Source of the DNA: Promethearchaeia archaeon
GTDB taxonomy: Archaea; Asgardarchaeota; Lokiarchaeia; Sigyniarchaeales; SOKP01
Assembly: GCA_029856105.1 (NCBI GenBank)
Contig: JAHQWH010000189.1
Span: 54,263 to 118,262 of the forward strand
Length of the DNA: 64,000 bases
Reading direction: 5' to 3'
The stretch's first letter is position 1. Each line of letters starts with the position of its first letter. The translations under genes and the position numbers were made by a program. This document shows positions 1,759 through 26,771 of this stretch, piece after piece. The notes under the pieces are model-generated. The model made no database searches. It had not been told where the DNA came from and saw nothing but the letters and a program-made list of their open reading frames with translations.

Positions 1759-2719
1759 TTTTTTCTAGATTTCTAATTCTAATGATGGGAATTTTAATTT
1801 TTTTAAGAGAATCGGGTATTTTAATCTCATTGTTTACTATAAAAAGAGAATTTTTTTGAAACAGTTCAGTAAACATCTTCAAACATCTAAAACTAAGCTC
1901 GTTAATTTTTTTATCTTCTTCAGAAACTCCTGAAAAGAGAGGGTAAACGCTGCTTTCTTTATTCTCGTCAATATATTTAGAATATAACGATAGTTTGAAA
2001 GGAATTGAACCTTTCTTAGACCAATAAGAACAAATTCCAATGTCATTCAAAACTTCTTGAAGATGAGATTCAAAAGAGCTCAAATTGATATCTTCTTGCA
2101 GGTCTTTTCGATCCATACTAAAATTGAAATTCCAATCAAAAATGTTAATTCTTCTAAAAAGATCATTACATTCTAGTATTAATGAGATTTTATTAGCTAT
2201 TTTTTCAGAAGGTCGCATGCTTTCATTTTCATACGCACAGACAGTTCTTTTAGTAATTCCAAGTCTTCCAGATAGTTCTTTTCGTGAGATTGCTTGTTTT
2301 TCTCTCAAAGATTTCATTAAATTACCGTTTAAAAACATCACACCCCCTCCTCTTCTCGCTAGAATGTATGGATATAACTCTTTACTGAGAATATTTTCTA
2401 ATGTAGTTAAAGTTATAAACGGCAACCCCTCTCTAATGTAAATAGTGTTATCTTCTAATTTGTGATAACGATTTCTAATTCCTATTAACAAGGGTTTAGA
2501 TTTTAACAATAGGGATAAAGATTTTATATCGTTTATTATATCAGCGTTTAAATTATCAATATTGGAAAAAATTTTTACGCTAAAAACTAAATCATTTTTT
2601 TTTACTAATAAGTCAAAACAAAACTTGCTTTTTTTATTAGAAAAGGAATCTAAAATAAATGTCTCAAATTTAGCCCTTTTAAGCATATTATCTATTTTTT
2701 CAAGTACCGCTTCAATCAT
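1709..2719 (-). CDS. Archaeal cHTH (XRE-type) transcriptional regulator, COG1395-like
   Basis: N-terminal CFDLLVKK / NIDN domain, ARRGG linker, central HTH (ISRKELSGRLGITKRTVCAYEN). Confidence 0.85.
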   Translation of the reverse strand: MIEAVLEKIDNMLKRAKFETFILDSFSNKKSKFCFDLLVKKNDLVFSVKIFSNIDNLNADIINDIKSLSLLLKSKPLLIGIRNRYHKLEDNTIYIREGLPFITLTTLENILSKELYPYILARRGGGVMFLNGNLMKSLREKQAISRKELSGRLGITKRTVCAYENESMRPSEKIANKISLILECNDLFRRINIFDWNFNFSMDRKDLQEDINLSSFESHLQEVLNDIGICSYWSKKGSIPFKLSLYSKYIDENKESSVYPLFSGVSEEDKKINELSFRCLKMFTELFQKNSLFIVNNEIKIPDSLKKIKIPIIRIRNLEKIDDEEEFVELIQESGN

Positions 2720-2834
2720 ATATTCCCATTAATTAAAAGATAAATAGCTAATTAAATTTTTTTTTATTGTGATATTACCTTCAAACTAAATTAATTTAAT
2801 TGTTATTTTAATTTCTCTAAATGAAGATTAACCT

Positions 2835-3401
2835 TTAATTACTTGTGAGTTTAAGGAAATCAGCATCAGTTATAATTCCAATAAATACATTATTTTCTTT
2901 TACTAATACGGCAGAATATTTAATTAATAAATTTGATATGTCTTTAGCGTTCCAATTTTTTTCAACTTCTGGAAAGGGCAATTCTATAATAGTTAAAATA
3001 TCTGCGTTTATTAAATCTGGAGTTGTAGTAATATGTTTCTGAATTTTTTTGGCAGTTATACTTCCGAAATTATGGTTTTTTTCTAAAATCGGTATCTGTG
3101 AAAAATTGTATTTACTCATTAACGTAATAACATCCTTTATGGTCGAATCTGGTGTTATAGATATTATATTTGGAGTCATAATATCTTCTGCGTGCTTTTT
3201 TGAACTTTTTTTCTTCATTCTTTCATTTTCTAGAAATTCGATAATTTTTTTCACTTTAGAATAAGGTGGGTCCATGTCTCCATTTTCTATTCTTGAGATT
3301 GTAGATTGCGAAATATCTAATTTCTCACCTAATTCTTTTTGGCTAATGTTTAATTTTTTTCTTAAATATTTGATTTGAGATAAATTTGGCAAAACTTCCA
3401 T
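2835..3401 (-). CDS. XRE-HTH + CBS-pair transcriptional regulator (COG3620-like)
   Basis: ISQKELGEKLDISQSTISRIENGDMDP HTH followed by two CBS repeats (FSQIPIL, GIITDAD). Confidence 0.9.
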   Translation of the reverse strand: MEVLPNLSQIKYLRKKLNISQKELGEKLDISQSTISRIENGDMDPPYSKVKKIIEFLENERMKKKSSKKHAEDIMTPNIISITPDSTIKDVITLMSKYNFSQIPILEKNHNFGSITAKKIQKHITTTPDLINADILTIIELPFPEVEKNWNAKDISNLLIKYSAVLVKENNVFIGIITDADFLKLTSN

Positions 3402-3437
3402 TTTAGAATGCGTAAAACTTATTTAGTATAATTTAAG

Positions 3438-3464
3438 TGCATATTTCATGCAATATATGCATAT
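3438..3464. promoter_or_regulatory. Putative operator: overlapping TGCA-based palindromes between the HTH-CBS gene and mat
   Basis: TGCAT-N5-ATGCA (3438-3452) and ATATGCATAT (3455-3464) in an otherwise very AT-rich divergent intergenic region. Confidence 0.35.
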
Positions 3465-3553
3465 TATTATCAATAATTATTAATAATTATTATTAATTTA
3501 AAAAAAACATAATAAAATAATTATTTCTATAAATAAGAAAGAGTTTAATCAAA

Positions 3554-4795
3554 ATGTTGAAAATCACACAGGCTGACTTTTTACCTATTGAAAAAAGTAA
3601 ATTTCCTGAAATTTGCGAAAGAAAAGGAATAGGACATCCAGATAGCGTTTGCGATGCCGTTGCTGATGCTTGTTCGAGAGCGTTATGTGTTTACTATTTG
3701 GAACATTTCGATAGAGTGTATCATCACAACGTTGATAAGGCCGCTTTGGTTGGTGGTGTTGCCAAACCTGAATTCGGAGGAGGTATGATCATTCAACCAC
3801 AATATTTTTTAATAGTAGGAAGAGCTATACATCAAATTCTTACAGAATGTGGAACTGAGCATAAATTGGAATATGTACCTGTTGCTACTATTTGTCTTGA
3901 TACACAACGCCAAATACTCGCAAAAATATTTAGAAACCTTGATTTAGCTAGAGATATACAATTCGATTATGCAGTTCGACCAGGGTCTATAGATTTAACC
4001 GGAGTTTTTGACGAGTCTCATCATTCGGAAGAAATTCCCCTCTCAAATGATACAAGTTTTGGAGTAGGATACGCTCCATATTCAGATGTAGAAAAAATAA
4101 CGTTAGAAGCAGAATACCTTATTAATTCTCCGAGTTTCAAGGATAAATGTAAGGGATCGGGTGAAGATGTTAAGGTAATGGTTGAAAGAATTGATAACAA
4201 GGTTGGAATCACCATTGCGGCTGCAATGGTCAGCAAGTACATCAACGATGTTGATGAGTATATTAATTATACAAATCAAATTAAAGACGCTGTATTAGAT
4301 TTAGCGGCTAAAATCATCCCAGAACGCGAAGTCACTTGCCAAGTAAATGTAGCAGATATTCTAAAGAAAGAACTTTTGTTTCTTACCATAACGGGCACAT
4401 CGGCTGAGGCAGGCGATGACGGCGAAGTAGGACGTGGAAACCGGTCTAACGGTCTAATAACACCTTGCAGAACTATGAGTTTAGAGGCTGTTTGTGGAAA
4501 AAATCCAATTAATCATGTAGGTAAAATCTACAACATTTTAGGAACGGAGATCGCCAGAGAAATTTATAAGAGAGGAGAAGGTGACATTTTAGAGGCACAT
4601 GTGAAGCTTTTATCCCAAATCGGGCGCCCAATTACGGATCCATGGGTAAATTCGATAGAGTTAATTCCTGCTGAAAATGTTAATTTTGCTAGTATTGAAA
4701 AAATCGCGAAAGAAGTCTCTGAAGAAAAATTGAGCAAGGAGTCCATGATTGATCTAAGGAAGCGATTGATTGCAGGGAAAATACAAGTATTTTAA
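3554..4795 (+). CDS. mat: Archaeal S-adenosylmethionine synthetase
   Basis: ERKGIGHPDSVCD, HHNVDK, NDTSFGVG, GEDVKVM, GRGNR, GKNPINHVGKIYN. Confidence 0.97.
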   Translation: MLKITQADFLPIEKSKFPEICERKGIGHPDSVCDAVADACSRALCVYYLEHFDRVYHHNVDKAALVGGVAKPEFGGGMIIQPQYFLIVGRAIHQILTECGTEHKLEYVPVATICLDTQRQILAKIFRNLDLARDIQFDYAVRPGSIDLTGVFDESHHSEEIPLSNDTSFGVGYAPYSDVEKITLEAEYLINSPSFKDKCKGSGEDVKVMVERIDNKVGITIAAAMVSKYINDVDEYINYTNQIKDAVLDLAAKIIPEREVTCQVNVADILKKELLFLTITGTSAEAGDDGEVGRGNRSNGLITPCRTMSLEAVCGKNPINHVGKIYNILGTEIAREIYKRGEGDILEAHVKLLSQIGRPITDPWVNSIELIPAENVNFASIEKIAKEVSEEKLSKESMIDLRKRLIAGKIQVF

Positions 4796-22293: not shown

Positions 22294-22752
22294 TCATTGG
22301 GTGTTTCTTTTAGCGAATAAGGATTTTAACTCACCCATAATAGCCCCTCTTAAACTTACAGGGCTGGCTGGACGAGCTCCGCCAGGACCTCCGGGCGGTG
22401 GTGGACCTCCAGGTGGGCCTCCAGGTGGACCTCCAGGTGGACCTCCAGGTGGACCTCCAGGTGGGCCAGCTGGGGGCGGTGGGGCACTACTTGGGGCTGT
22501 AGGCGCAGCAATGACTGGAGCTGCCCCCGTACCTCTCGTTCTAAGTGCCGAAACATCATTATTTATAGAATTGATTCGCGATTCTAATGTTGACATTCTT
22601 TGACCAACAACCGCTAAAGATTGATCTACTAAATCTGGTATCCTTAGAATCATTGACATCATTTTTTCAACAATATCGCCAAACGTATTCAATTTTTCTT
22701 CAAGAGGGGCTTTTTTTGTTTCTTGCATGAAATTTGCGAATTCTTCGGCCAT
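22294..22752 (-). CDS. Coiled-coil + polyproline + C-terminal amphipathic helix protein (WASP/VASP-like architecture)
   Basis: N-terminal heptads, APPPPAGPPGGPPGG...PPPPGG tract, C-terminal LRGAIMGELKSLFAKR. Confidence 0.85.
   Translation of the reverse strand: MAEEFANFMQETKKAPLEEKLNTFGDIVEKMMSMILRIPDLVDQSLAVVGQRMSTLESRINSINNDVSALRTRGTGAAPVIAAPTAPSSAPPPPAGPPGGPPGGPPGGPPGGPPGGPPPPGGPGGARPASPVSLRGAIMGELKSLFAKRNTQ
22400..22467. repeat. Coding 12-bp tandem repeat (GGTGGACCTCCA) x about 5.7, encoding (GGPP)n
   Basis: Units start at 22400, 22412, 22424, 22436, 22448 and 22460, with A/G wobble variants. Confidence 0.95.
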
Positions 22753-22894: not shown

Positions 22895-23518
22895 TTAACT
22901 AGTTTTATTGACGGCATTTTTTAAATTAACCCAGAGATCATCAACTTCATTCTTAACTTGTAAAAATTGATTAATTTTTTTTAATAATACATCCCTTGCG
23001 CGATCAAAATCTCTTTGGGAGTCGTTCAATTCAGCCTCTAATATGTTTATCTTTTCTCCTTCGATTAAATCGTTTTTCCTTTTTTCGACAGATAACGCTT
23101 TTTTAATAACAACGCTTCTTTTACTGGCTACATCGCCTAAGGCTGCAGCAAACTCATATTTTTTTTCAATTAAATATTCTTTTTTTACTGCGAGATCCTT
23201 TATTGAATCTATGTATTTTTTATTTACTTCGATATATTCGTCATTTTTATGGATGATTTCTTGAAAATATTTGACCTCCTCGTCTTTGATATTTGATCTT
23301 CTCTCTCTTACTAGAGTTTGCATTTGCTTTAATACATCTCTAAAAGTCCTATTAACCATATCTCGTGTAAGATTTACTTTTCTCAGGTTATCAGCGTATT
23401 TTTTTTGAGAATCGATTAATGTAGTCTGGGTTTTCGCTAATTTTTTTATTTGGCTTACTAGCGCCTTCTCCATGTTGGCAAGTTCTAGTTCGTCTTCATG
23501 CGTAATTATGGGGCTCAT
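22895..23518 (-). CDS. All-helical coiled-coil protein, BAR-domain-like
   Basis: About 200 aa of three long helices; C-terminal EKINILEAELNDSQRDFDRARDVLLKKINQF recalls helix 3 of SNX/Vps5-type BAR domains. Confidence 0.55.
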   Translation of the reverse strand: MSPIITHEDELELANMEKALVSQIKKLAKTQTTLIDSQKKYADNLRKVNLTRDMVNRTFRDVLKQMQTLVRERRSNIKDEEVKYFQEIIHKNDEYIEVNKKYIDSIKDLAVKKEYLIEKKYEFAAALGDVASKRSVVIKKALSVEKRKNDLIEGEKINILEAELNDSQRDFDRARDVLLKKINQFLQVKNEVDDLWVNLKNAVNKTS

Positions 23519-24837: not shown

Positions 24838-25911
24838 TTACATTTTATACCTTAAAATAGCAATCAGAGATCCTAAATTAATAATCTGTTGTCCTGTCGG
24901 GTGTTCACTACTTAAAATATGAACTTTACCGCCAATTTTTTCGACACCATTAATGATACTTTCGATTTTTAATTTTTGTTCTTTTGATGCCCCTCTAATT
25001 AAAATATCGGCGCAAAATAATTCCTTTACAGCACCTTTTTCTGTGGCATTAGAAATCTCGTCAAAACCAATGGCAATAATATCTGAGTTTGTACTAAACA
25101 AATTTAATATTTCTTCAATTTTTTCGGTTTCTTGTAATATTTTTACATTTTTTTTTATAATTTTTAATTCTTTTGATTTTAAAGTCTCTAATATGGCACT
25201 TTCAGTTCCGGAGCTGGCTTGAATGCTATAGATTTTTGGTAGATATGTAGATTGTGTTTTTTCTTTAAGAAATTGATTGAAATGATCCTTTGTACTTCCA
25301 GGGCCACATATAAGGATTGTGTTTATTTTTATATTCTTTATATTTTCGTCGATAAGTTTAAGAATCTCACCATAAAATTCTTCGTACGCTTTATTTCTAT
25401 AAGATTGTTCATATCTTTTACCAGGAATATTTTTTTTTATAGTGGCTAATCTATTATGACTGAAATTTGTTATTATAGCTATAGTAGCTAAACCTGTCTC
25501 AATTGCAATTATTAACATTATAAAATCAGTTTCGAATTTGGACGATTCATTAAGACGTTTTATTTCGCTCTTTAACCATTTTTCTTTAATTATTGTTAGT
25601 TTTTGGTTAGGTTCAATATTAAAAGTGTGATATTTTCCAAAAGTGATAAAATCCTCCGGGCCTTCTAAGATAGTACCTTTTACTCTTAATCTATTTGAAA
25701 ATTCATGAAAAGCGACTGATTCAACTTTTAATTTCAAGTACATTGGTTTTCTTTCTCCTTTAGAACCTTCCTTTAAAACAATTTTTCTGTACGTTCGTGC
25801 TGAAATTTTATCGTTTTTAGCTATTATGTTATAGAGCGTCCATAGATCGTTTAAGTCCTCTGTTTTAACAGTAATTACTTCTTTCTTTTTATCTATTTCC
25901 AGAATTTTCAA
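24838..25911 (-). CDS. pelA: mRNA surveillance protein Pelota
   Basis: EDLNDLWTLYN, FHEFSNRLRVKG, GKYHT, CGPG, SSEHPTG..I..LG...AILRY. Confidence 0.96.
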   Translation of the reverse strand: MKILEIDKKKEVITVKTEDLNDLWTLYNIIAKNDKISARTYRKIVLKEGSKGERKPMYLKLKVESVAFHEFSNRLRVKGTILEGPEDFITFGKYHTFNIEPNQKLTIIKEKWLKSEIKRLNESSKFETDFIMLIIAIETGLATIAIITNFSHNRLATIKKNIPGKRYEQSYRNKAYEEFYGEILKLIDENIKNIKINTILICGPGSTKDHFNQFLKEKTQSTYLPKIYSIQASSGTESAILETLKSKELKIIKKNVKILQETEKIEEILNLFSTNSDIIAIGFDEISNATEKGAVKELFCADILIRGASKEQKLKIESIINGVEKIGGKVHILSSEHPTGQQIINLGSLIAILRYKM

Positions 25912-26063
25912 ATAGATTATCTAACTCCAAATTTTAAATTTATATAATTAATGTATATATAATTAAGTATAGCATAAATCAAAAGACTAACTGTCTAAGG
26001 TTCTAATATCTTGGATAAAATAAAGAAAAAAAATAATAAAATACAACAAAAACAAAAAATTTG

Positions 26064-26216
26064 TTATTCTGCTCCTAAGGCTTTTTTGACCTTTTCTAAT
26101 TCTTCCATTCGTTTCTTTTTCTCTTCTTCGCGTTTTTTTAGTTCTTCATCGTCAACTTTTTGGAGCGAAACACCTTTTTTAATTTCTTCTTTTAATTCAT
26201 TACCTAATGGCGTCAT
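26064..26216 (-). CDS. 50-aa WH2/beta-thymosin-like peptide; below ORF-track cutoff
   Basis: ATG at 26216 with GGTG upstream; MTPLGNELKEEIKKGVSLQKVDDEELKKREEEKKKRMEELEKVKKALGAE. Confidence 0.8.
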   Translation of the reverse strand: MTPLGNELKEEIKKGVSLQKVDDEELKKREEEKKKRMEELEKVKKALGAE

Positions 26217-26324
26217 TGTTATTCAACACCTTTTATTTTAATTACTTTTTTGGGTACAATTTTAATACTTTTTATACACAAATTATAATAGAATTTATTT
26301 ATAAGTCTTGGTTTTTAGATAATA

Positions 26325-26771
26325 TTAAATATTCAAAATCATTAAATAAGCGCTTTTCTTTTGCCGGTAATAGTTCTCTATTTTCTGTACAATCCGGAAG
26401 CCAAATTTTTGATACAACCAAATGGCAACTTTATTTTTAGAGTTCACATTTAAAACTATTTCTTCAATATTGTTCATTTCTTTTATTTTATTTAAAGTAT
26501 ATTTTAATAGATATGATCCATAACCTTTATTCTGATATTGTTTTCTAATAAGTAAATTAATTAAATTTATTCGATCTTCTCGATCTTGAATAACAATAAT
26601 GAATCCAACAATTTTATTTGAAATATCATCTTCTATCAACTTTAAAAAGAAAGTGTTATTTATGATAAGATTGAGGATTGAATTTTTAGAAAAAGCATCT
26701 TTCTCGAAAGTATTATTTTCCAATCTGAATATTTCATCTAAATCCTTTATACTAACAGTGTTAATTCTCAT
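26325..26771 (-). CDS. rimI: RimI/Ard1-type N-terminal acetyltransferase (GNAT)
   Basis: YQNKGYGSYLL acetyl-CoA motif, LNVNSKN..AI.LY.KFGF, ENYY. Confidence 0.88.
   Translation of the reverse strand: MRINTVSIKDLDEIFRLENNTFEKDAFSKNSILNLIINNTFFLKLIEDDISNKIVGFIIVIQDREDRINLINLLIRKQYQNKGYGSYLLKYTLNKIKEMNNIEEIVLNVNSKNKVAIWLYQKFGFRIVQKIENYYRQKKSAYLMILNI

Follow-up and report, generated by a model that had tools for sequence, protein, structure and literature searches.

Among described actin-binding proteins, those closest to the protein reported here are the WH2 domains (PF02205), as in N-WASP, WAVE, WIP, MIM and Spire, and the beta-thymosins (PF01290), exemplified by thymosin beta4, ciboulot and actobindin-type proteins. 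Archaeal actins have described partners as well. The two-domain gelsolins of Asgard archaea carry WH2-like linkers (LRRV, LKHV, LVDV and LKDV) that contact actin (PMC7444086, PMC9433394), and the WH2-binding cleft of Lokiactin is established (PMC9433394). In Pyrobaculum, arcadin-2 sequesters an archaeal actin by means of a helix that docks into its hydrophobic groove, and has been described as a functional analogue of thymosin beta4; this helix forms the C-terminus of the roughly 200-aa protein, is oriented in reverse to thymosin, and shows neither sequence likeness to eukaryotic sequesterers nor an LKKT motif (PMC5173319).

The window analysed here, a stretch of 64,000 nucleotides from a Promethearchaeia archaeon of the order Sigyniarchaeales, holds a gene for a 50-aa protein, and no paper describing its family was found in the literature searched. 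With WH2, the family shares an amphipathic helix (L-x3-I-x2-G) followed by L-x-K-V, the lack of a fold of its own, and occurrence as single copies, as tandem arrays and beside profilin-related parts. It differs in scoring below the Pfam cut-off, in not conserving the first basic residue of LKKT, in a conserved helix of 27 residues that follows directly and is missing from canonical WH2, and in having a gene to itself, where WH2 is a motif within a large nucleation-promoting factor. The beta-thymosins resemble it in being stand-alone proteins of 43–58 residues that run from a helix through an LKKT-like stretch to a C-terminal helix, in single and tandem forms. However, the family lacks an LPSKE-type segment, the Pfam thymosin model misses it in 154 genomes, and the Loki form has its 27-residue helix, starting two residues after LQKV, in the place where thymosins have an extended linker and then a short C-terminal helix that caps the pointed end. 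The gelsolin linkers share the four-residue LKKT-like motif and show that a Lokiactin surface is available for binding, but they connect gelsolin domains and have no free WH2 helix at an N-terminus, whereas the 50-aa module is a separate gene with no gelsolin domain. Arcadin-2 is likewise an archaeal actin-binding helix, from which the 50-aa family differs by its free helix-LKKT layout. Finally, a 488-aa relative with about 10 units, which co-purifies with actin, recalls the tandem-WH2 nucleators Spire and Cordon-bleu; it has more units, joined by continuous helices instead of short linkers, and is absent from the source genome. The 50-aa family probably represents a regulator of archaeal actin that has not been described before and whose direct binding is putative.

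A short gene between GNAT and pelota

The 50 residues quoted in the original prediction, which had proposed a standalone ATG ORF and named no strand, match exactly a reading frame on the minus strand (Table 1). The GGTG that it had placed upstream is present at −14 to −11, and a neighbouring element, TTGA(G)/GTGA, which spans roughly −10 to −7, is better kept in relatives. A scan for bacterial-type promoters and terminators at the gene found none above shuffled sequences. The ORF had been thought too short for gene callers, but the exact protein is present in NCBI, JGI, ENA and Logan sets; its relatives are annotated as hypothetical proteins, with labels of Lokiarchaeota or Promethearchaeota on the close ones.

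Table 1. Locations of the 50-aa protein gene, its parts, its neighbours and related loci (plain coordinates are those of the window)
Feature	Location	Strand	Basis or remark
50-aa protein gene	26064..26216	minus	ATG to TAA; 14 K/R and 14 D/E, net charge 0
Helix 1, residues 3–14, amphipathic, WH2-like front	26175..26210	minus	AF2, conservation, N-WASP WH2 alignment
LQKV, residues 18–21, inside extended linker	26154..26165	minus	AF2, conservation
Helix 2, residues 23–49, N-cap D22	26070..26150	minus	AF2, conservation
GGTG-TTGA upstream of ATG	26223..26230	minus	putative ribosome-binding site
T-rich tract directly after stop	26020..26062	minus	resembles archaeal oligo-T terminator; putative function, from sequence
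RimI-like GNAT acetyltransferase, upstream neighbour	26325..26771	minus	Pfam PF00583, synteny
Pelota/Dom34, downstream neighbour	24838..25911	minus	eRF1 domains 1–3
207-aa coiled-coil protein	22895-23518	minus	
152-aa polyproline protein	22294-22752	minus	
Homologue of 152-aa protein	L166:1501-1959	plus	
Second Lokiactin region, source genome	L052:1501-2619 and 2701-3942	plus	
Tandem protein	L163:6361-7827 (G055), L031-L034, L177-L180	minus (L163)	
Profilin fusions	L182-L185, P0200, P0164, P0173		
Ribbon-helix-helix (NikA/CopG-like) fusions	L045:1934-2287, L046:1884-2273, P0201, P0174	minus (L045, L046)	
Hermodarchaeia stand-alone relative	L187:1471-1644, L199-L226	plus (L187)	GAGGTGA ribosome-binding site
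Frame in genus g79	L188:1171-1971; L193:1102-2013	plus; minus	267–304 aa
FolE of G055	L173:9241-9780	plus	GNAMCCOK_04250

That this frame is a gene is supported by its conservation, for which the original prediction had called. A family profile recovers the protein from 142 of the order's 153 other genomes; 246 genomes from outside the order give no match at E ≤ 0.001. All 42 short homologues that were inspected keep a start codon, a stop and a similar length. Comparison with 24 relatives gives a pN/pS of 0.146, indicative of purifying selection, and mismatches at codon positions 1, 2 and 3 number 112, 27 and 311. A WH2-like regular expression, composed after the motif had been seen, matches once in the 945,220 residues of the source genome's long ORFs. 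Translation, on which the original prediction had also depended, is documented for the short homologue of Ca. Lokiarchaeum ossiferum B35 (genome G055), UYP46132.1 (NEF87_002417). The supplement of 10.1101/2025.11.30.690169 lists this protein as GNAMCCOK_02436, an assignment that follows from the accession offset and from its mass of 8.24 kDa; the neighbours PorC (24.81) and PorA (47.57) agree with the mapping. It was detected in 16 of 16 proteome columns with a mean log2 of 18.4 (actin, 21.7); its detection by mass spectrometry comprises 5 peptides and 43.5% coverage. One might read the 50 codons as an accidental frame in AT-rich DNA between genes, or as the shadow of an opposite-strand ORF (26011-26241), given that the frame is short and of low complexity and is overlapped by a 76-codon ORF on the plus strand. 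The selection, the third-position bias, the constant start and stop, and the proteomics speak against this, and the opposite frame is open merely as the mirror of conserved codons. The chance of a non-gene is practically nil; proteomics and codon pattern have already refuted it.

The neighbours of the gene belong to translation and not to the cytoskeleton, which counts against a role with actin. Pelota lies 130–260 nt downstream in all 30 loci of the genus and in some genomes of families f2 and f3, and the GNAT gene adjoins the 50-aa gene in most of the genus's loci, as well as in several f2 and f3 genomes, including L. ossiferum. This conserved place suits the proposal that the protein has nothing to do with actin, being either a ribosome or translation factor (for instance a partner of pelota in hibernation or rescue) or a generic helical module for docking or oligomerisation, its likeness to WH2 then amounting to convergent noise. 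However, the gene is not linked to pelota any more in L. ossiferum, in family f4 and in Hermodarchaeia, and it has RBS-like and terminator-like signals of its own. We consider a protein unrelated to actin unlikely, and further evidence on both sides is given below.

The source genome has five actin-family genes, among them a 381-aa Lokiactin. A second Lokiactin copy, 85% identical, is followed by what looks by eye like a profilin-like domain fused to a TrmB-like helix-turn-helix region. Farther downstream in the window, a 207-aa all-helical coiled-coil protein that matched no Pfam family lies between a radical SAM gene and a gene for a 152-aa polyproline protein. The latter, of which 4 of 5 distant genomes keep a homologue, has a coiled-coil-like N-terminal helix, a long GPPGG polyproline tract and an amphipathic C-terminal helix (SLRGAIMGELK), a layout that is VASP/WASP-like by eye; its SLR-x2-IM-x-ELK motif also precedes the WH2-like module in fusions with LRR and RHH domains. 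Its L. ossiferum homologue, probably GNAMCCOK_02219, is expressed (log2 18.5) and is absent among the Co-IP rows examined.

Anatomy of the peptide and its likeness to WH2 and beta-thymosin

The AF2 model shows a helix at residues 3–14, an extended linker at 15–22 and a second helix at 23–49, without tertiary packing (pTM 0.40). A Foldseek search of this model against the PDB returned no match, which for two loose helices is uninformative. The residues on which the original prediction had staked its motif are kept across 58 diverse short members: position 8 is hydrophobic in 86% and position 12 (I12) in 98%, G15 follows in 90%, and within LQKV L18 is kept in 98%, K20 in 84% and V21 in 76%. Position 19 varies among Q, E, A and K, with K in just 11 of 58, a departure from LKKT, in which the corresponding residue is usually basic; the LKKT-like stretch contains one conserved basic residue only.

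The back of the peptide had been described as a plain charged single helix. In fact, the residues with the highest invariance lie there: E32, K33, K35, R36, E39 and L40 are near-invariant, positions 43 and 47 are hydrophobic, and R29, R36, L40, V43 and L47 share one face. Across short, repeat and fusion copies alike, R36 and L18 are the only residues conserved in at least 90%. Since E32, R36, E39 and L40 are held fixed, helix 2 is more than a simple charged helix, and this pattern suggests that it probably carries a binding face. The weight of invariance in helix 2 also fits a different proposal, in which the module would bind actin mainly as filaments, through the R36 face and not through a WH2 contact. 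Its repeats of 45–46 residues would then run along F-actin as a ruler of the nebulin or tropomyosin type, with the single copy acting as a weak side-binder or competitor. We regard this as quite improbable.

The helix with its L/I spacing and G15 stands as predicted, and the LKKT-like stretch agrees in L18, K20 and V21 but not at position 19. Formal membership of the Pfam WH2 or thymosin families does not stand: the peptide has no Pfam WH2 match at E ≤ 10, and only 2 of 31 and 4 of 54 family members reach E 0.03–0.04. The gathering thresholds of PF02205 (23.1 bits; family members score about 13–14) and PF01290 (24.8 bits) are exceeded in none of 154 genomes, and the 50-aa locus is not among the PF01290 matches at E ≤ 1 in this set. 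Such sub-threshold scores suit a protein unrelated to actin. A blind Pfam WH2 scan of the 154 genomes gave 37 weak matches, of which at least 5 fall on the WH2-like family, which makes up about 1e-5 of the search space, the matched kin not being independent of each other.

N-WASP WH2 tops 177,635 PDB sequences for profiles A1 and A3 (E 0.026 and 0.045), and the archaea-only profile A6 has 5 PDB matches at E ≤ 10, of which 4 are WH2 constructs (N-WASP 3M3N at E 0.0011, N-WASP 2VCP, Spire 3UE5 and Spire 3MN7); these E-values sum tandem WH2 copies, single stretches are not significant, and the matches are therefore suggestive only. The front half of the module alone retrieves WH2 structures in the A6 search, which argues against binding through helix 2 on filaments. 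In the ESM Atlas, where similarity is to be taken as a lead only, the best named cluster for the peptide is thymosin (0.86). A search of 1.84 billion representatives with the family profile gave 81 matches, among which one protein, P0184, is clearly eukaryote-like; the matching part consists of repeats to which Pfam gives weak WH2 scores. P0184 has FHA, PP1-binding and SAP domains in a Ki-67-like layout, with about 12 short WH2-like repeats.

Other assignments were considered and set aside. Some members have a K-P-D-x2-E-L-x2-R spacing that recalls the RPEL motif (PF02755), R-P-x3-E-L-x2-R/K-x-I-L with invariant RP, but most have K-V, and no RPEL match came up when 31 and 54 members were run against Pfam. 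Pfam and PDB searches with the family found no likeness to a gelsolin domain or to the C-terminus of arcadin-2. The DUF3006 and Phlebovirus NSM matches of the peptide in Pfam are sub-threshold and probably compositional, and an hhalign comparison of profiles A3 and A7 was circular and was disregarded.

Tandem arrays, fusions and spread of the module

Besides the short form, the module is reused in larger proteins. The tandem protein of about 490 aa (488 in L. ossiferum) with its ten or so copies, at a period of 45–46 residues, occurs in part of family f2 only, and the HMM of the short family scores 137.7 bits on the L. ossiferum tandem protein against at most 0.5 in 1000 shuffles. In the AF2 model of this protein (pTM 0.17), helix 2 of one unit continues into helix 1 of the next, giving single helices of 36–37 residues broken by linkers of 9–10 residues, without a fold. 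Its gene in L. ossiferum adjoins the thermosome and YggS genes. The source genome has a single short copy and no array. A search for "longer" homologues, itself a weak one, returned one repeat protein only.

These arrays bear on the filament proposal in both directions. A helix of 36–37 residues would measure about 55 Å, one subunit step on a long-pitch strand, to which the linker adds 9–10 residues, and the helices of the array run continuously. However, the array is limited to part of f2, against a stand-alone form that is near-universal in the order. For a protein unrelated to actin, in turn, the ten tandem copies are awkward, being a better fit to a polymeric partner than to the ribosome.

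In genus g27 and others, a profilin domain is followed by one to four copies of the module and a conserved, unassigned domain of 50 aa at the C-terminus; the profilin domain of P0200 matches the Asgard profilin structures 5ZZA, 7PBH and 5YED at E 1e-9 to 7e-7. The profilin fusion points to monomers, and thus away from filaments. Other fusion partners of the module are LRR and ribbon-helix-helix domains, an arrangement that would suit generic docking, as would the fusion of profilin-like domains in these genomes to unrelated domains, such as that next to the second Lokiactin copy.

Beyond the order, a broader profile finds a stand-alone relative of 53–59 aa in a second class, Hermodarchaeia, where 19 of 19 genomes have it. 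This relative has the front motif in common with the Loki form, and its C-terminal tail in common with members of the L. ossiferum type; a linker and short helix, which by eye give the thymosin layout, replace the E32/R36 helix, and the LKKT-like stretch has no conserved basic residue. The retention of the front half and the loss of E32 and R36 weigh against filament binding by helix 2. An HMM built from the Hermodarchaeia peptides alone scores above 12 bits on 17 of the 58 Loki members, compared with 1 of 2900 shuffled sequences; across all six frames of the source genome, the 50-aa peptide of the window comes second (E 0.22). In the ESM Atlas, again a lead only, the Hermodarchaeia peptide scores 0.89 for thymosin with 171 shared features, and its nearest clusters are the three of the 50-aa peptide. 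From these similarities, the Hermodarchaeia peptide may tentatively be taken as a homologue of the Loki family. A gene of about 95–150 aa directly upstream of it is conserved in 18 of 19 genomes and has no Pfam or PDB match.

In the other Asgard archaea searched, the combined Loki and Hermodarchaeia profile found nothing better than E 0.007, and no tie to the Heimdall lineage nearest eukaryotes was found. Weak matches in families f13, f31, f11, f14 and f15 were rejected, as they have E > 0.007 or are partial and lie in unrelated long ORFs. The exception is genus g79 of family f31, in which a frame of 267–304 aa holds an internal stretch very close to residues 7–24 of the 50-aa peptide, without the R36 helix. 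The restriction to one order suggested by the first family profile is thus probably too narrow. With a family present in two classes and not found in the other Asgard archaea searched, either common descent with WH2 or convergence may account for the likeness.

Co-purification with Lokiactin and a model for the peptide

Data from cells come from a published Lokiactin Co-IP in L. ossiferum (10.1101/2025.11.30.690169, Supp. Table 2), for which cells were crosslinked with formaldehyde. The tandem protein is GNAMCCOK_04085 (56.41 kDa), identified by mass and neighbours, with the thermosome protein 04087 confirming the register. It is enriched at log2 4.53 (23-fold; adjusted p 0.002; 44 peptides, 366 spectra), next to 4.44 (22-fold) for actin and 3.97 for 2DGel1, and stands above every gelsolin. 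It is the fourth-ranked non-contaminant, and among non-contaminants above log2 2.5 it has the highest spectral count after actin. No mention of it was found in the passages of the preprint or in the Nature version (PMC13716822) that were searched.

The short homologue behaves differently. GNAMCCOK_02436, quantified in 3 of 3 actin IPs and 1 of 3 IgG controls, reaches log2 0.57 (1.5-fold; adjusted p 0.105), which is not significant and within the background set by Elf1 (1.36) and a coiled-coil neighbour (0.70); two profilins are also low (1.07 and 0.31). That the array is enriched with actin and the single copy is not agrees with filament binding. The top ranks include the non-cytoskeletal proteins FolE (5.11) and uL1 (2.69), matches which suit a protein unrelated to actin; with these and the crosslinking, a high rank alone is no proof of actin binding. 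On the other hand, enrichment of the array as strong as that of the bait is hard to reconcile with such a protein.

As a check for antibody cross-reaction, the best ungapped epitope score of the tandem protein against the antibody peptides is not above that of background proteins. The protein contains K-I-D-x-x-E three times, a pattern with a loose resemblance to part of an antibody peptide; none of 558 background proteins has three, the motif having been picked after the fact. As a separate observation, the GEDPDR of FolE (GTP cyclohydrolase I, 34-fold enriched) is close to the GEDQPR of the second antibody peptide, with a borderline epitope score, and its enrichment possibly stems from cross-reaction. 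Altogether, the Co-IP data show that the array of the module associates with actin in cells, and direct binding by the short peptide is putative.

Three separate lines thus point to actin, namely the motif, the profilin fusion and the Co-IP of the array, and together they tell against an actin-unrelated protein. The reading that we favour, with fair rather than high confidence, is that the 50-aa protein is an intrinsically unfolded, WH2/beta-thymosin-like peptide that would bind Lokiactin. It agrees with the lack of a self-fold in the AF2 models of peptide and array, and with the WH2-binding cleft, whose residues are kept in the Lokiactin of the source genome. Against it, the pull-down evidence is from another family than that of the source genome, which lacks the array. 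Helix 1 would sit in the cleft between subdomains 1 and 3 of the Lokiactin monomer, LQKV would lie beside the acidic loop of Lokiactin, and helix 2 would extend toward the pointed end, as in a thymosin-like monomer buffer. The single copy would thereby buffer or sequester monomers, to which we give about two thirds of the weight of this reading, or else deliver them to barbed ends, which takes the remaining third. Nucleation by a single copy, which the original prediction had offered as an alternative to sequestering, finds no support in these data. The ten-copy protein may bind several actins by avidity, as a nucleator or as a filament-side binder, and such avidity would account for the array, and not the single copy, surviving the pull-down.

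A bolder version of this model, which we think unlikely, makes the module a true homologue of WH2/beta-thymosin, inherited from an Asgard ancestor and deployed as a buffer, a tandem nucleator, a profilin hand-over and an RHH sensor of G-actin analogous to RPEL/MRTF. If the module does bind actin, the ribbon-helix-helix fusion would be a candidate actin-sensing transcription regulator, and the stand-alone peptide with its ten-copy relative would add a third class of regulator, one that could act as the monomer buffer or the filament nucleator so far missing. Should binding hold, one would next ask whether WH2 is older than eukaryotes or evolved on two occasions.
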